Shown: positions 2,959 through 22,178 of the stretch, piece by piece | How positions within the stretch are numbered: position 1 is the first letter of the stretch | Layout: every line of letters begins with the position of its first letter | DNA from: a virus | DNA: 64,000 bases | Virus record (IMG/VR): IMGVR_UViG_3300025162_000052 | Coordinates: 3,309-67,308 of that record | Reading direction: 5' to 3' (one strand) | Translations under genes and position numbers: made by a program | Notes under the pieces: model-generated | Told to the model about the DNA's origin: nothing | Databases searched by the model: none | The model's input: only the letters and a program-made list of their open reading frames with translations

Positions 2959-3026
2959 GCTTAATTAACCCTAACCCTTCCCACTTACAACTGTCTGTAC
3001 TTATTCAAATGTTAGGGTAATTAAGC
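2959..3026. repeat. long inverted repeat / hairpin
   Basis: GCTTAATTAACCCTAAC 2959-2975 pairs with GTTAGGGTAATTAAGC 3011-3026 (one bulge). Confidence 0.6.
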
Positions 3027-3030
3027 TTTT

Positions 3031-3068
3031 AAAAGATACACTCCAACTTATAGTGTTAGAGTGTATCT
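3031..3068 (-). terminator. intrinsic terminator candidate after 3075..3473
   Basis: AGATACACTC/GAGTGTATCT 10-bp stem followed by a short T run on the minus strand, just after the stop codon. Confidence 0.55.
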
Positions 3069-3074
3069 AATTTT

Positions 3075-3473
3075 TTAATGTACTAAAGACAAGTCTTCAA
3101 TTGCCTGTTCGGTAGTTTTGGTAACCGGAGTAGCAATTTCATCAATGTTGAATATTTCAGCTTTACCTAATAAGGTTGAGCCTTGTAATACGTCCATTAC
3201 TGAAGCTTCTGCAATTTTACTCCAATTAATTCTTCTTCCGAATGCATCAGCTTCAGCTTCATTGTAGTTAAGTAAATAAGTTTTACCAACTACTAATCCT
3301 GTACGTTGTGCAATTGTACCACTCAAGAATAAACGATTTGGTGCTTTACCCGAAATCACTTTAAGCATTACATTTTGGGCATTGTTTTTATCTGTAGCAG
3401 AGTGTACTTTACCTGCTTTGTCTGTAAACTGGCTACGATTTTCAACTGTAGCTAATACCATTCCTGTTACCAT
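3075..3473 (-). CDS. hypothetical beta-rich protein, first gene of the leftward unit
   Basis: 132-aa ORF with a protein-like composition, followed by a terminator. Confidence 0.8.
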   Translation of the reverse strand: MVTGMVLATVENRSQFTDKAGKVHSATDKNNAQNVMLKVISGKAPNRLFLSGTIAQRTGLVVGKTYLLNYNEAEADAFGRRINWSKIAEASVMDVLQGSTLLGKAEIFNIDEIATPVTKTTEQAIEDLSLVH

Positions 3474-9611: not shown

Positions 9612-10118
9612 ATGGAACTTAAAAAGAGAATATCAGAAGAAGTAGAAAAACTACTTAATGAACGAATTAAAGGTGAATATCAATCAGCATACATTTATTG
9701 GGCTATGTCTAATTGGTGTGATTGTTATGGATTCTTTAAAGCTAAAGATAAATATCGTAAGTATGGTGATGAAGAAATTAGTCATGCTAGAAAATTAGAA
9801 GATTATATTAATGATAGGAATGGTAAAGTAGTGTTACAAGTTATTCCTGTACCACAACAAGAATTTAAATCATTACTAGATGTTATTACTAAATCTTATG
9901 AGCATGAACAAGTAGTAACAGATAATTATACTAAATTAGCAAGTGCAATATTTAATACTGATAAAGTAACGTTTGCAGAATTACAATGGTTTGTTACTGA
10001 ACAAATAGAAGAAGAAGCTAAGTTTGCTGATGCTATTATATTTGCTAACAGATTAGGTATTACAGATGAAACAACTGGTGTAGAGTTAGCAGAATTAGAA
10101 GATTTTCTTACTAAATAA
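9612..10118 (+). CDS. ftnA: non-heme ferritin
   Basis: LLNE.I..E..SAY.Y.AM..W, EE..HA, EHE..VT and LQWFV.EQ.EEE ferroxidase-centre pattern; 168 aa. Confidence 0.88.
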   Translation: MELKKRISEEVEKLLNERIKGEYQSAYIYWAMSNWCDCYGFFKAKDKYRKYGDEEISHARKLEDYINDRNGKVVLQVIPVPQQEFKSLLDVITKSYEHEQVVTDNYTKLASAIFNTDKVTFAELQWFVTEQIEEEAKFADAIIFANRLGITDETTGVELAELEDFLTK

Positions 10119-10120
10119 AT

Positions 10121-10321
10121 GTGGTTTTAACATTAGATCAAGTTAAAGTACTAGCAGATAGACTATGTAACCGTACAGGAATAAAATATATAGTCTATTT
10201 ATGCAGTACTGGAACTTACGAATTAACTGAAATTAATAATAGAAGTAAGTTGAAAAAAGAACAAATAAAATACATAACTGGAGAAAATAATGGTAAAACA
10301 AGTACGATTAGGAGTAAATGA
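10121..10321 (+). CDS. hypothetical protein
   Basis: 66-aa ORF with GTG start, within the operon. Confidence 0.55.
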   Translation: MVLTLDQVKVLADRLCNRTGIKYIVYLCSTGTYELTEINNRSKLKKEQIKYITGENNGKTSTIRSK

Positions 10322-10688
10322 ACTTACCTTCTATAAATCATATATAGGAATAATAAATATTTTATATAAGTTAGAACTTACTAGACAACAACAATATATG
10401 TTTGCTGAATTGTTATATCAGAATAATAAGTATAAAGATTTAACTAGAGAAGAACGAAATGTAATTATATTTAGTACTGTTATTCGAAAGGAAATGATGG
10501 ATAGATTAAAAGTAGATGTAGGTACATTTAATAATAATATAAGTTTATTTAGAAAACAAAAGGGATTACAAGGAAGTATTATACAAGGTAAAGAGTTAAA
10601 TGAAAATTATATAGTATATCCAGATAAAGATAATCAAATTAATATTAATTTACAAATAAACTATGGTACAACTCCAGGTATTAAATGA
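10290..10688 (+). CDS. winged-helix DNA-binding protein (RepL-like)
   Basis: LT.....F.ELL...IFS..IRKEM...L......FNN.IS..RK pattern; resembles 61711..62226. Confidence 0.6.
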   Translation: MVKQVRLGVNELTFYKSYIGIINILYKLELTRQQQYMFAELLYQNNKYKDLTREERNVIIFSTVIRKEMMDRLKVDVGTFNNNISLFRKQKGLQGSIIQGKELNENYIVYPDKDNQININLQINYGTTPGIK

Positions 10689-10935
10689 TATAGTTAGAAA
10701 TAAAAAAGATGGTACTCAAAAGTTAATAGCTAAAAATATTAAATGTAGAATATGGGTTAGACCAGATAGAATATTAAGTGTTGGTGAAATAATACGAAAT
10801 AAGAATAATATATATAAAACTAGATGTGAAGTTAGTGTTGAGAATGTTGGTAATCTTATAGTTAATATTAATGTTGATAAGTTAATAGATTTGTTAAGTA
10901 AAAATAAACCATTGGTAGGATATGTCAGACGTTAA
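10663..10935 (+). CDS. hypothetical beta-rich protein
   Basis: 90-aa ORF, coupled. Confidence 0.65.
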   Translation: MVQLQVLNDIVRNKKDGTQKLIAKNIKCRIWVRPDRILSVGEIIRNKNNIYKTRCEVSVENVGNLIVNINVDKLIDLLSKNKPLVGYVRR

Positions 10936-11206
10936 CAGAATACAGGAACAGGAAGGGGTTATTAAGTTATATAGAGAATTAGCACAAGTACATAATATTC
11001 CTATAGCAGAAATTAGAATAATAGTTCGTAGTCAATTTGCATTAATAGCAGATAATATTAGAAATACTAATTTAGAAGATAGTACTACTTATGATTATGC
11101 AAGATTAGTTAATTTTGGAGTATTTTGTATAGATAAATCTGCAATAAATAAATATTTTAGATACAAAAAAATCAATGACAAATTACATAGTGAGTCTTTG
11201 GGGTAG
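10922..11206 (+). CDS. IHF/HU-like DNA-binding protein
   Basis: Two N-terminal helices (LYRELAQ..NIP...I..IVRSQF..I) followed by RLVNFGVF; typical crAss-like IHF upstream of terL. Confidence 0.7.
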   Translation: MSDVNRIQEQEGVIKLYRELAQVHNIPIAEIRIIVRSQFALIADNIRNTNLEDSTTYDYARLVNFGVFCIDKSAINKYFRYKKINDKLHSESLG

Positions 11207-11642
11207 AGAGTATAATATTAAAGAAACTACATCTATAGAATGTATGACTGAAGATACATTATATGAATGTAAATGTGGTAATAAATTTATATGTAAACGG
11301 GGATATAAACCACAATATAAGTATGATAATGATGATATAAAGAAAATGGTTAAAAATAACCCTATACTATATTATGGTAATCAAAAAAATATGGATGAAG
11401 ACTTTAAAACATGTGAGTGTGGTAATAGATTTAACAATATGAAATTATTATATCCTAAATATATCCCATCTATAGCTCCTACAATTAGAATTAGAACTGA
11501 ACCGGATTTAGATATTAGTTATCATGAAGATGAAAGAAAACAAACTAATTGGTGGGAATTAGGTGGTGGTGTAGAAGAGTATAAAGATATACATCATGGG
11601 GATGACCCACATAATAATGATAGAGTAATAAGACAAACATGA
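11175..11642 (+). CDS. zinc-ribbon protein (FmdB-like)
   Basis: YECKCGNKF and CECG cysteine pairs. Confidence 0.6.
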   Translation: MTNYIVSLWGREYNIKETTSIECMTEDTLYECKCGNKFICKRGYKPQYKYDNDDIKKMVKNNPILYYGNQKNMDEDFKTCECGNRFNNMKLLYPKYIPSIAPTIRIRTEPDLDISYHEDERKQTNWWELGGGVEEYKDIHHGDDPHNNDRVIRQT

Positions 11643-12217
11643 ATAAATTAATAGAACTTAATAGTGAAAATAATTTAGTTATACAACCAGAAGCATTAGT
11701 TATAGATGCTTATGCTGTTGTATGGAATAGAGATAAAAGTAAAGATAAAAAGTTGGCGATCAAAGAATTAACATTTGTATATTTTATGTGTAGTTTAGAT
11801 AGATTAAATGTATATAAAGAATATGTACCAGAAGAACGGTTAAAAATGATAAAAGAAGACATGATGCCTAAAGATTGGAAAGTAGATAAAATAATAAAAG
11901 ATGCTATAGAACAATATAAAAAACATAATTATTCAGCTACTACAGAATTAGTAATTGCTGCACAAAAAGCTGCTGATAATTTAAAGAAGTTCTTTGAGGA
12001 AATAGATTTAAATGAACGAGATACTGATACAGGAAAACCTATTCATAAGGCAACAGACTTAATGCGAAATTTAAAAGAGATGGCAGGAGTACGTAAAGGG
12101 TTACAAGAGTTACTACAAATGGAAGAAGAAGAAAAGACAGACAAAGGTAAAGTTAGAGGTGGTGGTAGAATAGGATTATTTGAAAATCATAAAATGGACA
12201 AACAAATAAATATTTAA
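11639..12217 (+). CDS. putative terminase small subunit / conserved crAss-like helical protein
   Basis: Helical protein with a C-terminal KVRGGG, located upstream of terL. The function is inferred from position. Confidence 0.55.
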   Translation: MNKLIELNSENNLVIQPEALVIDAYAVVWNRDKSKDKKLAIKELTFVYFMCSLDRLNVYKEYVPEERLKMIKEDMMPKDWKVDKIIKDAIEQYKKHNYSATTELVIAAQKAADNLKKFFEEIDLNERDTDTGKPIHKATDLMRNLKEMAGVRKGLQELLQMEEEEKTDKGKVRGGGRIGLFENHKMDKQINI

Positions 12218-12218
12218 T

Positions 12219-12539
12219 ATGAGTAATAAATATTACCCAATAGACTTTGCTTATGAAAGAGTAGGAGGAGGAATTGATTTTGTAGGAATACATAATCAAA
12301 TGCCTGGTATAAATTATGGATATTTTTATATAGATTTTGAATGTGACGACAAAGAATATTTTAGAAAAGGTAATGTATTAGTTGATAATACAGGAAAATA
12401 TCAAATAGAGTTAATAGATGAGCCTATTAATTTTAAATATAGAATAAATAGATATAAATGTAGAGTTAATAGTACTAATCCTAATAGTTATATTCCTGTA
12501 GAAAGATTACAGAAAGGGGTACTATGGAAAAAGTTATAA
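12219..12539 (+). CDS. stand-alone paralog of the major capsid insertion domain
   Basis: Aligns end to end with MCP residues ~82-178 (see findings). Confidence 0.7.
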   Translation: MSNKYYPIDFAYERVGGGIDFVGIHNQMPGINYGYFYIDFECDDKEYFRKGNVLVDNTGKYQIELIDEPINFKYRINRYKCRVNSTNPNSYIPVERLQKGVLWKKL

Positions 12540-14764
12540 AGAAATATGATATACCAGAAAATATAATAGAATTTAATATCCCTATACCAATAGATGATAA
12601 TGAGTTATCAACTACATTAGGGCAGTCATATCCACCAGATAGTTTTGAATATAAAATAGTACAGCATTTTTGTAATGGAGAAAAGTTACCAGACTTCTCT
12701 CCATTTTTGCTTACTAGACAATTCTTTCAAGAAAATGGATATTATACTAATTTACGATATAATGGACACCCAGATAGTGCATATTTTAAATTTTGGGAGT
12801 CAGAACAACGTAAATGTATAGATGGTATAGATTGTGATATAGATAGACAAATATGGAAAATAACAGGATATTATTATTGGTATTTAACATTTAGTCCAAT
12901 ACATAGAGTAAAAGAAATAGGTAAAAATCCTATAACTGGTAAAGTAATGTCAGAACGTACTTATGCATTACCTGATATATATGATATAGACTATTTTTGG
13001 TTTTTATATGTAGATGAAGCTAGAAATCGTGGGCAACATGCTAGTTGTTTAAAGAAAAGAGGTATTGGTTTTTCATTTAAAGCTATGAGTATGTTAACTC
13101 GTAATTTTTATATGATACCAAAGAGTAAAGGATATGCTGTGGCGGAATCATGGGATTATCTAACTAAAAAAGATGGTTTAATTAATAAGGTATCGGAACA
13201 TTTAGCATTTATAGATGAATTTACAGCATTTGGTAAAAGGCGTCAAGTAAAAGATACTGATGAGTTAAGAAGAACATCATATTGGGAAACTGATCCTGAA
13301 ACTGGTAATAAAATACAAAAAGGTTATATGTCAGAAATGATAGCTATAACACTAGAAGGTAAGCCAGATAAAATGAGAGGGCTTAGGGGTCAATTAATAT
13401 TATACGAAGAGTCAGGTAATAATGCATGTATACAACAAGCATGGGAGATTAGTAGGAGTTCTGTAGAAGCTGGAGACTATGTGTATGGACAGTTAATATC
13501 GTTTGGAACTGGTGGCACAATTGGTAGTGGGTTTGAGGGGTTAGAGCGTATGACTAGAGATCCTAATAGTTTTAATATATATGGAATACCTAATATATGG
13601 GAACGAAATAGGATACGACAACGAATAGGATTTTTTGTACCAGATTATATATGTAGAGAAGGTAATATAGATAAACATGGTAATTCAGACATATGTACTG
13701 CACTACAATCTGAGTTAAAAGAAAGAGAGACTAAAAAAGGTAATCCATTAGTATTAAGACAAAGAATGGCAGAGCATCCATTTACTATAGATGATGCTAT
13801 TATGCGAACTGATGGTAGTCCATTTGATCTACAAATGATACGTGAACAAAAAGCAGAGTTAATGGTTAATCCTATATATAAAGGGAGTGCTTATGTAGGA
13901 GAGATGATAATTAAAACTGATGGTATAGTAGACTTTAAAGTAAACCCCATATTAAAACCTATAATGGAATTTGATACTAAAAAGGGTAAACGACTAGAGG
14001 AACAAGATGGGTGTATAGTTATTTATGAAATGCCTGTACCAGATAGTAAAGGAAAAATAGGTTTTGGATGGTATGTAGCAGGAACAGATCCTATTAATCT
14101 TGATAGAGATGATGTGAAGGATAATTTTTCATTAGCTAGTACATTTATATTAAATAGATTTACTAGACGTATAGTAGCTGAATATACAGGTAGACCAAGA
14201 TTAGCTGCTACATTTTATGAACAATTACGTAGATTATTACTATTTTATAATTGTCAAACACTATTAGAAGTAAATATAGTAGGTGTATTTGAACATTTTA
14301 ATAAATATAATTGTACACATTTATTAGCTGAAACTCCATCATTATTTAGGGATATGAATATAGGTGCTAGGGGAATGGGTAATAATATAGGTGTTAAATC
14401 TGACCCACGTGGGCAAGTTAAAGCATTAGGTAGACAATATATAATAAAATGGATGGAAGAAGTTATAGAGAATGAAGTAACGGAAAATGGAGAAGTAAAG
14501 ACACGATTCATGTGTAACACTATCAGAAGTATTCCATTACTACAAGAAATGGAACAGTGGTGTAAAGAAGGTAATTATGATAGAATAGACGCATTAAGTT
14601 ATGCATTATTACATTTAGAGGAAAAAGTTAAGATAGTTCAGGATAGAACAAATACTCATAAAAGTGTATTAAATGATCCATTTTGGCATAAATTATCTGG
14701 TAATAGAACTAAACAACCTGCTATAACTATAGATAGAAATGGTATGATAAAAGTACATAATTAA
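12524..14764 (+). CDS. terL: terminase large subunit
   Basis: Walker A-like LKKRGIGFS, MRG.RG, Walker B ILYEESG, FGTGG, nuclease GTDP, LEVN and NYDRIDA. Confidence 0.95.
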   Translation: MEKVIKKYDIPENIIEFNIPIPIDDNELSTTLGQSYPPDSFEYKIVQHFCNGEKLPDFSPFLLTRQFFQENGYYTNLRYNGHPDSAYFKFWESEQRKCIDGIDCDIDRQIWKITGYYYWYLTFSPIHRVKEIGKNPITGKVMSERTYALPDIYDIDYFWFLYVDEARNRGQHASCLKKRGIGFSFKAMSMLTRNFYMIPKSKGYAVAESWDYLTKKDGLINKVSEHLAFIDEFTAFGKRRQVKDTDELRRTSYWETDPETGNKIQKGYMSEMIAITLEGKPDKMRGLRGQLILYEESGNNACIQQAWEISRSSVEAGDYVYGQLISFGTGGTIGSGFEGLERMTRDPNSFNIYGIPNIWERNRIRQRIGFFVPDYICREGNIDKHGNSDICTALQSELKERETKKGNPLVLRQRMAEHPFTIDDAIMRTDGSPFDLQMIREQKAELMVNPIYKGSAYVGEMIIKTDGIVDFKVNPILKPIMEFDTKKGKRLEEQDGCIVIYEMPVPDSKGKIGFGWYVAGTDPINLDRDDVKDNFSLASTFILNRFTRRIVAEYTGRPRLAATFYEQLRRLLLFYNCQTLLEVNIVGVFEHFNKYNCTHLLAETPSLFRDMNIGARGMGNNIGVKSDPRGQVKALGRQYIIKWMEEVIENEVTENGEVKTRFMCNTIRSIPLLQEMEQWCKEGNYDRIDALSYALLHLEEKVKIVQDRTNTHKSVLNDPFWHKLSGNRTKQPAITIDRNGMIKVHN

Positions 14765-14806
14765 AAAAATTATCTATACCAATTTTTTTTTATGAGAATT
14801 TATAAT

Positions 14807-14814
14807 TATCTTTG
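14807..14814 (+). promoter_or_regulatory. -7 promoter element upstream of the portal gene
   Basis: TATCTTTG in an intergenic gap; no clear -33 TTTG. Confidence 0.45.
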
Positions 14815-14843
14815 CTGGTAATTGAAATTTAATAATTAAAATA

Positions 14844-17309
14844 ATGATAACAGGTTTAAGTATTACATCTAGTGTATTCCCAAGTCAATTAGTTGATACT
14901 GAGAAGAAACAAGATGAAAAATGGCAAAAAGATTGTGTAGATGGCGGTATTAATAAAGTACTCTACACAAATGATTATATGAGAAAGAGTAAGCAAGATA
15001 AAGTAGAGAACTATAGTATAGTTCATGGCAAATTTGATAGGAAAAAATTACTAGCACATCTTAATCCATTAATGTTGGAACAGGATGATATGGATGATGA
15101 TGTATATGAATTATTTGGAGATTCAGATGGGTATGCTATTATATTAGCACCATTAAAGACATTATTTGGTGAAGAATTAAAACGTAATTTTGATCCTAGA
15201 GCTTATGTAGTAAATGCAGATGCAGTAAGTGAGAAGGAAAGACTTATTAAAGATAAAGTTAATAAATTTTTAGATGAATTATTACAAGAGCAATTAAGTG
15301 AAGATGAAGTAAAGAAACGAACTGAGCAACTATTACAATGGAAAAATAAAGATGCTCAGACTATACATGAAACAATGGCTAATAATACATTAAAACATTT
15401 TCTACCTAAACAACAGTTTAAATGGAAGATGAATGATTGTTGGAAAGATTTATGTATAGCTGCTGAAGAATCTGTATATATAGGAGATGCTAACGGTGAG
15501 CCTTATATAAGAAAAACTAATCCATTACAAATAATGTGGTATGGTAATGGGCAGTCTAATAAAATACAAGATGCTACTATTATAGTAGAATGGGGATACT
15601 ATAGTATATCTGCTATATTAACAGAATTTGGTAAAAAGATAAAAGAAGAAGATTTAATTAAATTAGAAAATTATCTTAATTATGGGACAACATCTAGTGG
15701 TAGTTTAATTAAAACTGCACAAGTAGCACCATTTGTAAATATACACAATGTAATGTTACCATTAGATGATATGTCATATTCTGAAACAGGATTTTCCCCA
15801 TTTGGTTATACATGGTATGATAGACAAGGTAATATTCTAGTAGTAAGAGTAAATTGGTTGTCTCAACGTAAAATTGGTGATTTAAGTTATCCAGATGAAT
15901 TTGGAGAGACTCAGCATAAATTTGTACCTGAATGGTATAAAGTTAATAAAGATGTTGGAGAAACTGTAGATTGGTTTTGGATAAATGAGTGGATGTCTGG
16001 TATTAAAATAGGATATGATATTTATGCTGATATTAAAGTTAATGAAGTTCAGTATAGAAGTATAACTAATCCAGCAATATGTAGACCACCTTATGTAGGT
16101 ATAGTATCTAATATTAATAGTGGTAGAGCATATAGTATAGTAGATTCTATTAAAGAATTTGCTTATGAATATATAGTATATGCTAAAAAGTTAAAACACC
16201 TATGGTTAACTAACTTAGGTAGAATTGCCAATATAGATACTGCTAGTATTCCTACAGGTATGATGGAAGATGGTAGTAAATGGGATTTAAAACGTTGGTT
16301 TAATTTTATAAAAACACATCGTATAGCACTACGTAATAGTTTTCAAGAAGATAATAAAGGACATGCTGTAGGTAATATGCAGTCTCAAACTGGTTATATA
16401 GATATGACTGCTACTACTGAGATTGACCAAATAATAAGATATTTAGAGTATATAGAATCTAAAATAGATAAACTTAGTGGAGTTAGCCCACAAAGACAAG
16501 GTGATATAGCACCTTCTCAAGGATTAGGTACAAGTAATCAAGCTGTAGCGTATTCAGCAACTCAAACAGAGGATTTGTTTAATATGCATGAGGAATTTAA
16601 ACTAGATGTATTAAGATTCTTTTTAGAACAAGCTAAATGGTGTTTAAAAGATAAAAAAGTATTAGTACAAAATATACTAGATGACCAACAAATAAAACTA
16701 ATAGAGATTGATGGTGCATTATTTTCAGAAGCAGAATATGATATACAAATAACTAATTCGTATAAATTACAAGAATTTGAACGTATATTAAAAGGTGATA
16801 TATTAAGTAGAGCTGTACAAAATGGGTCAGTACAAATATCTGATGTAGCTGAAATGATGTTGTCAAATAGTCCAACTGATATGATTAATAGATTAAAAGT
16901 TGGAGAAAATAAAAAGATAGAAATGGAACAACAAAATCAGCAACAACAATTACAAATGCAACAAAAACAATTAGATGTACAAAGAGAAATGTTAGCATTA
17001 CAGCATAAAAATAAATTAGAAGAAATGGCTTTCCAAAGAGAAACTGATATGATGAAATTACAATTGCAATTACAAGATAAAGCTAATGCTGATGTATTTG
17101 GTCAATATTATAAAGATACTAATTTAAATGGTATAGATGATAATATAGAATTAAAAAAACAAGAATTAGTTAATACTGATAAAGAAAAACAAAGAACACA
17201 TGATGCAACACAATCAGAAAAAGATCGTAAACTACAGTTAGACTTGACTGAAAAAGATAATCAGACTAAATTAAAGATAGCTCATAGTAAAAAAAGTACA
17301 ACTAATTAA
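14844..17309 (+). CDS. portal protein
   Basis: 821 aa, follows terL. L.GEE.KR, W.WINEW..G.KIG, SGVSPQRQG and a Q-rich C-terminal coiled coil as in crAss-like portals. Confidence 0.92.
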   Translation: MITGLSITSSVFPSQLVDTEKKQDEKWQKDCVDGGINKVLYTNDYMRKSKQDKVENYSIVHGKFDRKKLLAHLNPLMLEQDDMDDDVYELFGDSDGYAIILAPLKTLFGEELKRNFDPRAYVVNADAVSEKERLIKDKVNKFLDELLQEQLSEDEVKKRTEQLLQWKNKDAQTIHETMANNTLKHFLPKQQFKWKMNDCWKDLCIAAEESVYIGDANGEPYIRKTNPLQIMWYGNGQSNKIQDATIIVEWGYYSISAILTEFGKKIKEEDLIKLENYLNYGTTSSGSLIKTAQVAPFVNIHNVMLPLDDMSYSETGFSPFGYTWYDRQGNILVVRVNWLSQRKIGDLSYPDEFGETQHKFVPEWYKVNKDVGETVDWFWINEWMSGIKIGYDIYADIKVNEVQYRSITNPAICRPPYVGIVSNINSGRAYSIVDSIKEFAYEYIVYAKKLKHLWLTNLGRIANIDTASIPTGMMEDGSKWDLKRWFNFIKTHRIALRNSFQEDNKGHAVGNMQSQTGYIDMTATTEIDQIIRYLEYIESKIDKLSGVSPQRQGDIAPSQGLGTSNQAVAYSATQTEDLFNMHEEFKLDVLRFFLEQAKWCLKDKKVLVQNILDDQQIKLIEIDGALFSEAEYDIQITNSYKLQEFERILKGDILSRAVQNGSVQISDVAEMMLSNSPTDMINRLKVGENKKIEMEQQNQQQQLQMQQKQLDVQREMLALQHKNKLEEMAFQRETDMMKLQLQLQDKANADVFGQYYKDTNLNGIDDNIELKKQELVNTDKEKQRTHDATQSEKDRKLQLDLTEKDNQTKLKIAHSKKSTTN

Positions 17310-17377
17310 TAGTTATCTATTTGTAATAAAAATATAGTGTCAATAGCTATAATTAAAGTTTATTTTGACTCTAAAAA

Positions 17378-17410
17378 TTTGTAAAATGACAATTAATATA
17401 ATTAAATTTG
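17378..17410 (+). promoter_or_regulatory. Bacteroidota promoter for the scaffold/capsid genes
   Basis: TTTG(17378-81)-N21-TAAATTTG(17403-10). Confidence 0.7.
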
Positions 17411-17425
17411 TGAGATTTAAAAAAA

Positions 17426-18661
17426 ATGGCAAAATCTATTTATGATGATGACGACCAAGTAACATTGGTTATTCCAGATGATGATGATATATTTAATCTA
17501 CCTAAAATGTTTGAAGGAGATGGAACTGATATATCTAGTGTTCCTAAAGGTGGTGAAATTATAGATAAAACAGCAGAAATAGAAAAGACTATTAAAGCTA
17601 CATCTAAAAAGAAACCTATAGAAAAAGAAGAAGTTCTTTTATCTACAGAAGATGATGATGATGTTATAAAACCAGAGAATGATGATGAAGATGAACAAGA
17701 AGAACCCAAGTCTACATCTAAAGATAAAAAGACTAAACAATCTGAGAAAAAAGTAGAAACTAAAAAGGATAATAAAAAAGCAGAAGTAGAAGCTCCTACT
17801 TATGAATTAGATTATAATCCTATACTCCAAAGGTTAAAAGAGAAAGAAGTACTTACTATAGATTTACCAGAAAATGTAGAATCTGATGAAGATTTGTTAA
17901 ATGTATTTGAACAAGAAGCTATCGCATATAAAAATGATTATCATAATTATATGGATAGTAAATATAATGGTTTACTTACGTATTTAGAAGAAGGAGGGGA
18001 CGCATTAAATTTCTTTAAAACAGTTAAAGAAAATAATTATGATGAAATAGAATTTGATAAAATTAGAGAAGATCAAACAGCTAAAGAAAAAGCATATATT
18101 GATTTTTATAAAACTAAAGATATGGACGATGAAGATATTATGCGTAATATGAAACGTGCAAAAGATTTAGAAGAATTTAATATTGAAGTAGAAAAAATAT
18201 ATCCTAAACTTCAAAAACAAAGTAAACAACAAAAAGAAACGTTAAAAAAGGAAGCTAAAGAAAAAGAACAAAAAAGAGTAGATCAAGAAAAGATATTATA
18301 CCATAATATTTCTAGTACTATTCTAAAATCTGAAGAACTTATTCCTACGATTAAACTTAAAGAAAGTGACAAAAAAGCAATTACTAAATTAGCAGTATCT
18401 AATGATGTATTTAATAAATTATCACAAGACCCAGTAAAAAGTAGAATATTATTATCTGCATTAGCACATTATGGTATTTTAGATGGAAATTGGGATAAAA
18501 TTATAAAGAATATTGAAACAGGTAAAGTTAAGGAGTTAAAGTCACAGTTCTTAAAGAATCCTAGTAAAGGTAGTGAGACTAATGTTGATTTAACTAATAA
18601 TGATGATGACATTGGTGGAAGTATCGCTAAGAGTTACATGAAAACGTTTGCTAAACGGTAA
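17426..18661 (+). CDS. putative scaffolding protein
   Basis: Acidic low-complexity N-terminus and coiled-coil C-terminus; lies between portal and MCP. Confidence 0.7.
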   Translation: MAKSIYDDDDQVTLVIPDDDDIFNLPKMFEGDGTDISSVPKGGEIIDKTAEIEKTIKATSKKKPIEKEEVLLSTEDDDDVIKPENDDEDEQEEPKSTSKDKKTKQSEKKVETKKDNKKAEVEAPTYELDYNPILQRLKEKEVLTIDLPENVESDEDLLNVFEQEAIAYKNDYHNYMDSKYNGLLTYLEEGGDALNFFKTVKENNYDEIEFDKIREDQTAKEKAYIDFYKTKDMDDEDIMRNMKRAKDLEEFNIEVEKIYPKLQKQSKQQKETLKKEAKEKEQKRVDQEKILYHNISSTILKSEELIPTIKLKESDKKAITKLAVSNDVFNKLSQDPVKSRILLSALAHYGILDGNWDKIIKNIETGKVKELKSQFLKNPSKGSETNVDLTNNDDDIGGSIAKSYMKTFAKR

Positions 18662-18688
18662 AATTTTAAACTCAATAAATAAATAACA

Positions 18689-20227
18689 ATGGCAGTACAA
18701 AAAGGTCAAGTTCGACCCTTTCAATTATATGAGGGTCAATGGCATACTGGGTTAACAATGGAAACCCACTTAGCCAATATGTATAAAAAGATGCCTTATT
18801 ATGCATCTGATATGGTAGAGAAAATGTTCGAATCTACTTTTGGAGACGATATTATTTCTCATGTAAATCAATATCCTGTATTTAAAGCTAAAGATAGAGT
18901 ATATCGTTGGTTAGGTGTTGGTATGACAGAGAAGAATATTCCTTTAATTCAAGCATGGGAAGATAAATCAGGTAGTATTCCTGTAGGTACATCTACACCT
19001 TATATTGGTGCAAACTCTACAGATTTCTTCTTAGATTTTGGAGAAAAGTTGTTTGGTAGTAAACAACATATCGTAGGTATGAAACCTGATCTATATAGAT
19101 TATGGATTCTTGAAGAACCTACAATGATTGAAGCTGGACGTTGGAGATACAGGTGTCAATTAACTGGTTCTGATGGGGTATATATTCCTAAAGAAGAGTT
19201 AAAAGCTGGAACAAGATGGTCAGGTGATGGTGGTTTGGTTGCAAATGACTTTTCACGTGATGGTTATCAACCTACATTTACTAGTCCATTTGAATTTGAG
19301 AATAGAATGTCTCAATTCCGTACTATGATTAAAGTACCTGGTTCAGTTTATCGTGAAGGTAAATATGGTGATAATGTTTATATGTTCAAATTCTTAGATT
19401 CTGATGGTAATCAACACAAAATTTGGTTTGATGCATATTGGTACACATTTTTAAAAATGAACAGAGTTGATAGAGCTAAAAAATTCTTGTATGACAAATC
19501 TAACAAATTAGCTGATGGAACAACTGCTAACGTAGATTCACAAACAGGTATGCCAGCAGATGAAGGTTCAGGATTATATGAACTTATGTCAGCAGGTAAT
19601 ATTCACCCATACTATCCAGGTGGTTTATCAGTAGATTATATCACTAAAGTTATTTTGGATGCATCTGTAACTAAAGTGCCTGAAGATAAACGTGCTATTA
19701 CAATTATGGCAGGTGAATATGGTCTAGTAGATTTGCATAAAATGTTACGTAGAGATTTGATTTCTACATATACAACTCCAGCTTATATGGGGGATACTAC
19801 TGGTCGTGCTTATCAATGGTCAGGTAATAAAGTTCATGTAAACTTAGGTCAGATTACTGGTTATGCTGATGTTAATGGTGTTAAAGTAACATTCATGCAT
19901 GCTCCACATAAAGATAATCCAACTCGTAATAAATTGTTATATCAAAATGGTGGTCGTGCTAGTTCATACGAATATGATATTTTAGACTTTGGTACTACTA
20001 ATGGTCGTCCAAATATCCAACGTGTAGAATTAGAAGGTGAGAATGATATTTACGCATTACAATTAGGTATTAGATCAGCATTTGGATCTCGTGGTTCTGA
20101 AAAGATGCCAGCTATAGTATCAACTGAAACAGATATGGATGTTATCCATTATATGTCTTGGATTGGTTCTATTATTTGGAATCCTACTAAGGTTATTAGA
20201 TTAATACCTGCTGTTCTTTACAGATAA
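18689..20227 (+). CDS. major capsid protein (HK97 fold, crAss-like)
   Basis: 512 aa; W.GLT..HL, YRW, GSGL.E, GEYG, NG.KVTF.H.P..D; codon choice typical of a highly expressed gene; synteny. Confidence 0.93.
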   Translation: MAVQKGQVRPFQLYEGQWHTGLTMETHLANMYKKMPYYASDMVEKMFESTFGDDIISHVNQYPVFKAKDRVYRWLGVGMTEKNIPLIQAWEDKSGSIPVGTSTPYIGANSTDFFLDFGEKLFGSKQHIVGMKPDLYRLWILEEPTMIEAGRWRYRCQLTGSDGVYIPKEELKAGTRWSGDGGLVANDFSRDGYQPTFTSPFEFENRMSQFRTMIKVPGSVYREGKYGDNVYMFKFLDSDGNQHKIWFDAYWYTFLKMNRVDRAKKFLYDKSNKLADGTTANVDSQTGMPADEGSGLYELMSAGNIHPYYPGGLSVDYITKVILDASVTKVPEDKRAITIMAGEYGLVDLHKMLRRDLISTYTTPAYMGDTTGRAYQWSGNKVHVNLGQITGYADVNGVKVTFMHAPHKDNPTRNKLLYQNGGRASSYEYDILDFGTTNGRPNIQRVELEGENDIYALQLGIRSAFGSRGSEKMPAIVSTETDMDVIHYMSWIGSIIWNPTKVIRLIPAVLYR

Positions 20228-20264: not shown

Positions 20265-21218
20265 ATGACAAATTCGAGTGCTAGTGGAAAAGGTGTAGTA
20301 GAAAATACTACACCTAAATCCTGTTTAATACCTGGAAAAATAGTAAAAGTACGTCCTGTACCTGTGAGAAAAACTCCTTTTATTGTAGGAACTGATAGAG
20401 ATAGAATCAAGAGTGAACAAATAATGCTAACTGGGACATCAAGAAGTATTATATGCCCTAAATATGACAATGGTAGATTTGTAGAGCCATTAACATGGGA
20501 AGAACGAGAGTATCTTGAAAAAGCATTAGGAGTTAATTTGGATATAAATAAACCAAATGATAACTACTTAAATGAAGTACGAATTCAAGTTAGTAAAAAT
20601 TCAGATGATATTGGTGATGTTTTTACAGAATTAGATTTAGGTACTCCAGATGGTTTCTTAGCATGGAGAGTGTGTTTAGTTGCACCAGAAGTAGCTAGTG
20701 AAAAAAATCCAGAAGGACATTATAAAGCAGAACATTGGTTTTATTTAGATGATGATGAAGTACAAGAAACATCTGATAGAGATGGTAATAAAGTTGAAGA
20801 TGATTGTCTTAAATTCCTTTACACTATTGAAGATAATAAAGAAAAATTATATAATTTCTTACGTACATTTAATTTAATCTTTAAAACTAATAAACGAATA
20901 GATAAACAATCTGCTAGTTCAGATTGGATTTATAATGAAATAAAAGGTTTGATTAAATCAAGAGAAAGTAGAACTAGGGTACATCAATTAGTAGAAATGG
21001 TTAAAAAAGATTTAGCTAGTTACGAATTAAAATTGGTTATTCAAGATGCACTTTCAATTGGGGAGATTAAATACAATAGTTCATTGAACGAATATACTAA
21101 TTCAGTAAATGAAGTAATAGGTAAGAGTTTAAAAGATGTTGAAGATTTTTTACGTAATCCGGCTAATCAAATTAAACGAGAGCATATTAAAGCACAAATA
21201 AAGTTACAATTAAAATAA
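20265..21218 (+). CDS. conserved crAss-like protein downstream of MCP
   Basis: PLT.EE...LEK.LG..L and LDL.TP motifs; position is conserved in Crassvirales. Confidence 0.7.
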   Translation: MTNSSASGKGVVENTTPKSCLIPGKIVKVRPVPVRKTPFIVGTDRDRIKSEQIMLTGTSRSIICPKYDNGRFVEPLTWEEREYLEKALGVNLDINKPNDNYLNEVRIQVSKNSDDIGDVFTELDLGTPDGFLAWRVCLVAPEVASEKNPEGHYKAEHWFYLDDDEVQETSDRDGNKVEDDCLKFLYTIEDNKEKLYNFLRTFNLIFKTNKRIDKQSASSDWIYNEIKGLIKSRESRTRVHQLVEMVKKDLASYELKLVIQDALSIGEIKYNSSLNEYTNSVNEVIGKSLKDVEDFLRNPANQIKREHIKAQIKLQLK

Positions 21219-21221
21219 GAT

Positions 21222-22178
21222 ATGACAGCTAACTCAATGGGTGATAGTTTACAACTATTATTCGAAGCTAGTACTGGAACAAATCGACAGTTTAATAGTA
21301 GAGAAAAGTCATTCTTTTTAAATATGGGAATGACTGACTTTATTAATAAACGTACATTTCCTGATGGAAATACTAAACAAAAAGGTTTAGAAAGTGATAA
21401 TAAACGAATATTAGACTTAGCACCATTATTAGGCACTACATCTGACTTGTATTTTAAAATACGAGATATAGGTGGTACTAATTATGGAGACTTCGTAAGA
21501 GGTACTTATGTTAATGGAGCTATGAGAAATCCTGATAAAGACGCTGATGGTATAACAGATAATGAAACTACGTATGGTACAATCACAGATGCAGAGGACA
21601 TGAAATACGGTGTATTAGTTGAGCTTCGTGATGAAGTCTTATTCATAGTATCTCAGAACTGTGATTTATCATACGGTACAGGAACAAATAAACAATGGCG
21701 ATACAATGTTAGAGTAGATAATATTCCTAACGAATTGTACAATGACCAAATCTATAATTCGTTTAAGCAACCTTATTTTGATTTAGTATGGAAGAAAGAA
21801 TTTGGTAAATCATTACCAACATCTCTATTATCATATAGGAATACTAATGAATTTCGTTCAAGCACTGCTGCGCGTAATAGTAGTACAACAACCCCTTTAA
21901 TTAACCCAGACTGGTATTTTAATGGTACTAGAAGTAGGATATTACAACTATTACCTGGTAAAGGTTGGGAAGTAGAGAAGTATAATGTTACTTATATAAA
22001 GAAACCAAATGAAATAGTGGTGGATTATGTAAGACCAGACAAGCAAGTTCATTGCGAATTGCATCCACAAGTTCATTATGAAGTGATACAATTAGCATTA
22101 AGATTTGCGGCAGAAGCTATTATCCCAAGTATACAGAAATATCAAGTTGTAGATAAAGAGAATAAAGAAAACGAATAA
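21222..22178 (+). CDS. tail ring / head-tail connector protein
   Basis: EKS.FLN, Y.K.P..I and CELHP..H.E.I..A motifs of crAss ring proteins. Confidence 0.75.
   Translation: MTANSMGDSLQLLFEASTGTNRQFNSREKSFFLNMGMTDFINKRTFPDGNTKQKGLESDNKRILDLAPLLGTTSDLYFKIRDIGGTNYGDFVRGTYVNGAMRNPDKDADGITDNETTYGTITDAEDMKYGVLVELRDEVLFIVSQNCDLSYGTGTNKQWRYNVRVDNIPNELYNDQIYNSFKQPYFDLVWKKEFGKSLPTSLLSYRNTNEFRSSTAARNSSTTTPLINPDWYFNGTRSRILQLLPGKGWEVEKYNVTYIKKPNEIVVDYVRPDKQVHCELHPQVHYEVIQLALRFAAEAIIPSIQKYQVVDKENKENE

Follow-up and report, generated by a model that had tools for sequence, protein, structure and literature searches.

A stand-alone copy of the capsid insertion domain between the putative small and large terminase genes of a freshwater crass-like phage

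The locus and its genes

The window analysed here is a stretch of 64,000 nucleotides from the IMG/VR virus record IMGVR_UViG_3300025162_000052, which comprises 67,308 bases and is estimated to be 70% complete. Its source is a deep-branching freshwater crass-like virus; when its large terminase (terL) was compared with 122 matching phage records, identity did not exceed 35%. [quoted passage not shown] The features of the locus are as follows.

11639..12217, plus strand: likely crassvirus "gene 86", putative small terminase, 192 aa (phrog_16390, E 3.5e-16)
12219..12539, plus strand: the 106-aa ORF, a stand-alone paralogue of the MCP I-domain, predicted beta-barrel (BLASTP, profiles, predicted fold)
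12524..12539, plus strand: 16-nt overlap of the 3' end of the ORF with the start of terL, which is read in the -1 frame with respect to the ORF
12524..14764, plus strand: large terminase subunit, terL, 746 aa (phrog_6681, E 2.4e-100; tblastn to Crassvirales terL, at most 35% identity)
14844..17309, plus strand: portal protein, 821 aa, in the same co-directional gene string (phrog_6547, E 1.3e-98)
18689..20227, plus strand: complete MCP, 512 aa, homologue of crAss001 gp32 (PF23898, 248 bits; PDB 7qof_A, E 2.9e-52)
18923..19222, plus strand: resident I-domain of the MCP, residues 79-178, paralogous to the ORF (BLASTP, alignment)

The TAA of the 192-aa gene is followed, after a 1-nt spacer, by the start of the ORF, and the terL start (ATG at 12524) is consistent with the terL homologues in L004 and L006, two loci of related phages. 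A scan of positions 10000-15000 found no terminator-like site, and promoter-like sites occurred at background frequency (43 found, compared with 35.9 +/- 5 in shuffled sequences). The composition of the plus strand is skewed across the whole window (A 40.9%, T 31.4%, G 17.1%, C 10.6%; GC 27.7%), and between 20 and 35 kb all but one of the listed ORFs of at least 70 aa are on that strand. Residues 6-510 of the MCP align with residues 3-502 of 7qof_A. Following the MCP gene are a 317-aa gene (20265-21218) homologous to crAss001 Gp33 (E 2e-10) and a 318-aa gene (21222-22178) that matches the Pfam family CrAss_Ring_3_4 with 33.3 bits and, weakly, the ring protein gp34 in the PDB. Among the window genes scanned, none could be recognised as a homologue of the auxiliary capsid protein, gp36.

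The 192-aa protein is probably the product of crassvirus gene 86, which has been proposed as the likely small terminase subunit, TerS (PMC7886860). It has no Pfam match, and the leads from the Atlas to the T5 and gpP terminase small-subunit families were weak (0.78-0.80); the adjacency of phrog_16390 genes to terL supports the published proposal. The ORF itself was considered as a candidate TerS and rejected, as the conserved candidate is the upstream 192-aa gene and phrog_16390 matches that gene and not the ORF.

Relationship of the ORF to the MCP insertion domain

BLASTP aligned residues 1-104 of the ORF with residues 79-178 of the MCP (29 of 104 positions identical, two short gaps, 42 bits, E 5e-10), which bears out the full-length correspondence proposed in a preliminary description of the locus; the matching blocks quoted there are present, and the MCP coordinates are right (nt ~18923-19222). 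The alignment is significant: its Smith-Waterman score of 100 was reached by none of 2000 shuffles of the ORF (mean 32.8, sd 4.9, maximum 55; z 13.6), and the next-best open frame of the whole window scored 58. Residues 26-101 of the ORF matched positions 100-172 of the Pfam profile Crass_capsid (PF23898) with 29.2 bits (gathering score 27), and phrog_11589, a major head protein family, matched the ORF with an E value of 1.2e-6 over positions 102-177. A hidden Markov model (HMM) built on the I-domain columns of 17 related MCPs, with the ORF left out, matched at E 4.8e-11 over model positions 3-102 of 104. Aligned with each of the 17 MCPs in turn, the ORF fell on the I-domain segment every time (Smith-Waterman scores 62-104), and the database entry for the ORF protein already bears an automatic Pfam annotation, Crass_capsid.

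Residues 79-180 of crAss001 gp32 form a beta-barrel I-domain inserted in the E-loop (PMC10172136), and the MCP segment aligned to the ORF corresponds to gp32 residues 77-175 in a fold comparison. An AlphaFold2 model computed from a multiple alignment of the ORF and the 17 MCPs had a pLDDT of 83 and a pTM of 0.77; prediction from the ORF sequence singly gave a pLDDT of 38.8, and the confident model leans on the alignment of MCPs. When this model was searched with Foldseek, the top seven matches were all crAss001 gp32 chains (E 2.8e-6 to 6.1e-5; TM by query 0.74-0.75), with all other matches at E 0.027 or worse. The exhaustive aligner VIA-align superposed 96 residues on gp32 77-175 with a Z of 13.4 and an rmsd of 2.6, the next chain having a Z of 7.2. 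The ESM Atlas holds its own language-model structure of the ORF protein (pTM 0.71), the nearest neighbours of which are three Crass_capsid clusters (TM 0.74, 0.64, and 0.66). Two independent models thus give the fold of the gp32 I-domain, and the ORF is, as modelled, a stand-alone I-domain with that beta-barrel fold. The preliminary description had taken the segment to be the E-loop insertion domain and the copy to be diverged yet intact, with clean boundaries; the sequence statistics, the profiles, and the two structure predictions uphold both points.

With 106 aa, the ORF comprises the I-domain only, and the full HK97-fold MCP is a separate gene. Intron-split MCPs occur in some crass-like phages (PMC7886860), and the ORF was therefore also considered as a fragment or exon of a split MCP gene. 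This origin was rejected because the MCP of the window is complete, collinear with gp32, and in possession of its own I-domain.

The boundaries of the ORF indicate how it may have been formed. Its Met1 lies opposite Met79 of the MCP, a residue invariant in the seven closest MCPs, so that an internal Met codon of the parent appears to have been reused as a start codon. At the other end, the ORF stops three residues past the Trp aligned with MCP Trp177 and thus encodes just the beta-barrel. Between these limits the sequence has changed extensively. Identity to the I-domain of its own MCP is 28%, and of the 27 positions that are invariant among the 17 MCP I-domains the ORF has kept only nine (E13, G23, G30, N32, F36, F40, Y61, P93, and W103). 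Only the Tyr survives of a block, G-x-K-P-D-L-Y-R-x-W, that is invariant in the 17 MCPs, so at least one conserved MCP surface or contact has been lost; the block is also not conserved in crAss001 gp32 and is therefore clade-specific. The product is mildly basic (pI 8.5), whereas the resident I-domain is acidic (pI 5.8), and the GC content of the ORF (0.25) is like that of the neighbouring small genes, compared with 0.34 for the MCP gene. MCP-invariant positions were not preferentially retained: 9 of 27 were kept, compared with 41 of 75 variable positions at which the ORF has a residue that occurs in any of the MCPs, a trend in the reverse sense (Fisher p 0.07). A version of this test restricted to the phage's own clade (18 of 43 compared with 19 of 59, p 0.40) likewise gave no support for an MCP-like constraint.

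In a maximum-likelihood tree of 34 I-domains, the end branch of the ORF measures 3.86 changes per site, about 30 times the median of 0.12. The ORF falls within a clade with support of 93/87 that includes its own MCP clade, the members of which are nearest to it by path. The MCP gene of this lineage is most likely the source of the ORF, and the most economical reading is a duplication within the lineage, or an acquisition from a reasonably close relative, after which the copy diverged very rapidly; an ancient origin with repeated loss of the gene is possible.

These data indicate that the ORF is almost certainly a real protein-coding gene derived from the I-domain segment of a crassvirus MCP gene. 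In a genome of 28% GC, a random codon is a stop with a probability of 0.097, and a single one of 20000 mononucleotide shuffles of the ORF DNA stayed open. On the non-coding strand between 10 and 35 kb, 6 of 1778 stop-to-stop frames reach 106 codons. A frame that is still open, with few indels, after more than 70% of its residues were replaced argues for selection on the protein. The earlier impression that the copy looks selected is supported indirectly, by the open frame despite the long branch, the retention of fold-core residues, and the tight coupling to neighbouring genes.

An identical ORF protein is encoded on 47 contigs. Contigs from four DNA runs of three freshwater or lake studies (2016-2020), some of which may be the source of the record, carry the ORF without any difference. 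Across the 8.6 kb from 11639 to 20227, the four runs (X2, X3, X7, and X8) differ by two substitutions (17142 A>G and 19923 C>T) and one 3-nt deletion (17477), and the phage is almost clonal across these metagenomes. The deletion falls inside an acidic, Lys-rich 411-aa gene, which is located between the portal and MCP genes and may encode a scaffold. Some short contigs follow part of the 192-aa gene before departing from it, with loose ends at 12006 and 12135, which suggests that related phages are present in the same samples. No RNA run is listed among the sequencing runs that carry the sequence.

Distribution of the gene and the terS-terL junction

Homologues of the ORF were sought in several sequence collections. 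A word-indexed search of 5.8 billion clustered proteins returned, at near lengths, only the ORF protein itself; among longer proteins in the same set, 23 candidates for carriers of the domain were obtained, none of which matched at E values up to 10. A phmmer search of 1.84 billion representatives found nothing but the ORF protein, and tblastn against 50,697 phage records, IMG/VR contigs, and JGI metagenome contigs identified no further homologue. Close relatives of the phage were also sought: none was detected with the terL protein in IMG/VR, with a terL alignment in metagenome contigs, with an MCP alignment in GTDB genome contigs, or by megablast of 10.5 kb against phage records. Related MCPs with 83, 81, 74, 68, 64, and 63% identity were found, three of them on IMG/VR contigs; the one at 83% is encoded on a contig of 100,683 nt. 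The contig L004 (MCP identity 74%) has matches to four of five upstream genes at 34-45% identity with the gene order kept, and the locus L006 (63%), part of a complete 104.7-kb genome with terminal repeats, has matches among the upstream genes for the 90-aa and 192-aa genes only. Both keep the order of the upstream genes, and in both terL comes next after the 192-aa homologue, across gaps of 54 nt and 7 nt, respectively. The ORF is absent; its only match in L006 is to the MCP. Immediately before its phrog_16390 gene, L006 has an additional ORF of 140 aa (2974-3396), with no counterpart in the window or L004, which is a further sign of gene turnover near the terminase genes.

A survey of Crassvirales for the same gene before terL had been proposed in the preliminary description. 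A terL-anchored sweep of IMG/VR yielded 46 loci, two of which duplicate L004 and L006; together with L004-L006, these make 47 distinct other loci. The I-domain HMM matched the MCP in 21 of the 47 (E of 1.4e-5 or better) and a free-standing copy in none. Five short HMM matches (in L018, L019, L025, L029, and L034) are to MCPs truncated where the locus ends. Among ten long or complete crass-like genomes, three gave matches, each inside a frame of MCP length, with no free copy. The ORF is therefore not conserved at this position: with no occurrence in the 47 other loci, it is a singleton of this lineage in a variable slot, which lowers the odds of an essential structural role.

Of the 47 other loci, 44 have a phrog_16390 gene immediately before terL. 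The two genes overlap or are almost contiguous in 31 of these (gap of -56 to +84 nt), often with an overlap of exactly 23 nt, and are separated by 289-1321 nt in the remaining 13 (L009-L011, L033, L034, L036-L038, L040, L041, L044, L045, and L049). The enlarged gaps are occupied by ORFs on the plus strand, 78-134 aa in length and unrelated to the ORF of the window, and none of ten that were scanned against Pfam reached the gathering score. An H-E-x-x-H string is present in the occupant of L034 (5566-5925). Steigviridae have a homing endonuclease in the slot together with a small protein, for which there are two examples.

L053, 404-724: crAss001 Gp17, 106 aa
L003, 8514-8861: cr126_1 gp080, 115 aa

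These two proteins occupy the same slot between phrog_16390 and terL and are similar in size to the ORF. They are related to each other (22% identity, E 9e-7), but neither is detectably related to the ORF, and cr126_1 gp080 has no Pfam match. Unrelated ORFs in 13 of 44 loci, together with the occupants in Steigviridae, identify the terS-terL junction as a hotspot at which genes have been gained repeatedly, the I-domain copy being one of them.

Possible functions of the product

The reading that we favour, tentatively and at rather less than even odds, is that the ORF product is a late-expressed, dispensable accessory head protein. With the I-domain segment copied into the variable slot that separates the putative terS from terL, the ORF would be translated from the late head-morphogenesis string along with the terminase, the portal, and the MCP. 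The soluble I-domain may then dock in trans on the outer layer of the capsid; sites that lack an I-domain, or irregular parts of the lattice such as the surroundings of the portal vertex, are candidates, and there it could add stability or alter the exposed surface. In crAss001, I-domains and the auxiliary protein gp36 build this layer around local three-fold axes, in assemblies that account for much of the exposed surface, and the portal vertex is served by gp57, a small protein dedicated to it (PMC10172136). I-domains and accessory proteins have also been reviewed as alternative capsid stabilisers (PMC7602432).

The location of the ORF within the head gene string speaks for such a role, and its absence from the 47 other loci, L004 and L006 among them, and from the ten long or complete genomes speaks against it. 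The loss of the clade-invariant MCP block and the shift in charge also weigh against it. Because relatives lack the gene, any structural role must be dispensable for this phage group. The long branch and the shift in pI suit a new function as well as a decoration role, and a slot with small ORFs and homing endonucleases is a pattern more typical of accessory or mobile genes. By analogy with gp57, the ORF product might fill a site made irregular by the portal; gp57 is, however, encoded far from terL in crAss001. A phmmer search of the ORF against PDB chains, gp57 included, gave no match at E values up to 10, and gp57 was not among the listed fold matches. The decoration or cement proteins lambda gpD, T4 Soc and Hoc, and phage L Dec are likewise small accessories of the head module, and the ORF product may share with them binding to the capsid exterior. 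No sequence or profile relation to these families was found in Pfam or PHROGs; the ORF is homologous to part of the MCP itself, and its binding is putative. No decoration protein was listed in the fold searches of the ORF, and Pfam and PHROGs gave capsid-protein matches only.

A second, rather unlikely explanation is that the soluble I-domain acts in counter-defence, as a decoy or sponge that binds a host sensor of the exposed domain of the MCP or another host factor. Capsid proteins can trigger bacterial defence, as when CapRel SJ46 senses an MCP (PMC13728456). The gene is lineage-specific and lies in a slot that turns over, with unrelated small ORFs in 13 of 44 other loci; its extremely long branch fits an arms race; and co-expression with the MCP follows from its position. 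The same divergence weighs against mimicry: with 28% identity to its own I-domain, retained residues that are mostly Gly, Pro, or aromatic, and the MCP-invariant block gone, the ORF product would be a poor mimic of the MCP surface. Furthermore, no capsid-sensing system is known for the host, probably a freshwater Bacteroidota, and no precedent for an MCP-derived decoy was found in the literature searched. PADLOC gave no match to the ORF, its library covering defence systems and not anti-defence proteins. That the phage deploys the exposed domain of its own capsid as a separate soluble decoy or sponge for a capsid sensor, or as another trans-acting mimic of a capsid domain, we consider improbable.

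It is also unlikely that the product modulates assembly or packaging inside the cell without becoming part of the virion, either by chaperoning or capping the interfaces of the MCP or the auxiliary protein or by helping the terminase find the procapsid. The I-domain of phage P22 has roles in folding and assembly. The position of the gene, wedged between the putative terS and terL and coupled to each of them, would suit a modulator of this kind. The packaging machinery has no need of such a factor, however: 31 of 44 other loci have the upstream gene directly adjoining or overlapping terL. In a variant of this explanation, a -1 slip in the overlap would fuse the ORF to TerL, as the overlap contains a zero-frame AAA AAG (12528-12533, after G12527) at which a -1 shift enters the terL frame; the product of such a slip would be an I-domain::TerL fusion without the first three residues of TerL. 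RNA structure beyond the putative slip site does not exceed that of shuffled sequences (z -0.24), the A-rich string is explained by the Met-Glu-Lys start of terL itself, and, as weak evidence, no longer protein with this domain was found. The slip string at 12527-12533 is probably a coincidence.

Finally, a neutral or near-neutral duplicated fragment, or a relic of a recombination or mobile-element event in the hotspot, would account for a singleton with no homologue among billions of proteins and for a very long branch compatible with relaxed constraint, but this is very improbable, mainly because the frame is still open where stops are expected (28% GC, more than 70% of residues replaced, one open frame in 20000 shuffles), and also given the alignment with only two short gaps and no frame-breaking indels, the retention of the nine domain-wide invariant positions, the confident barrel from two predictors, the coincidence of ORF and domain boundaries, and the recurrence of the same sequence in runs of three studies from 2016-2020, which may include the source sample and in which the whole 8.6 kb is nearly invariant.

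The closest known system is the crassvirus MCP I-domain itself (gp32 79-180; PF23898), with which the ORF shares homologous sequence, the same predicted beta-barrel, and matching length and boundaries. It differs in being a gene of its own and not an insertion in an HK97 fold, in being mildly basic and not acidic, and in keeping only 9 of the 27 invariant positions. Duplication of a capsid gene to give a second gene is known from T4, where gp24, a full-length HK97-fold paralogue of gp23, takes up a special position in the shell; in the present case the duplication involved the accessory domain only. Although the domain family is known, no published stand-alone gene for it was found in the main texts of the open-access literature, in agreement with the preliminary description, and as far as these searches show a stand-alone gene for the crassvirus I-domain is undescribed.

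The weight of this finding is limited because it concerns a single lineage of uncultured freshwater phage that is known from sequence alone. I-domains and decoration proteins are two alternative ways to reinforce or functionalise HK97-fold shells, and conversion between them has not been documented. The ORF provides a clean natural case of an I-domain excised into its own gene, with an internal Met of the parent as the start, and it shows crass-like phages to have a hotspot of gene gain at the terS-terL junction. If the product is directed at the host, the duplication of structural domains would be a source of counter-defence genes. Should the decoy or mimic reading prove true, the ORF would encode the first anti-defence protein born from the duplication of a structural domain and would stand, as a living intermediate, between I-domains that are part of the capsid protein and accessory proteins encoded apart from it.
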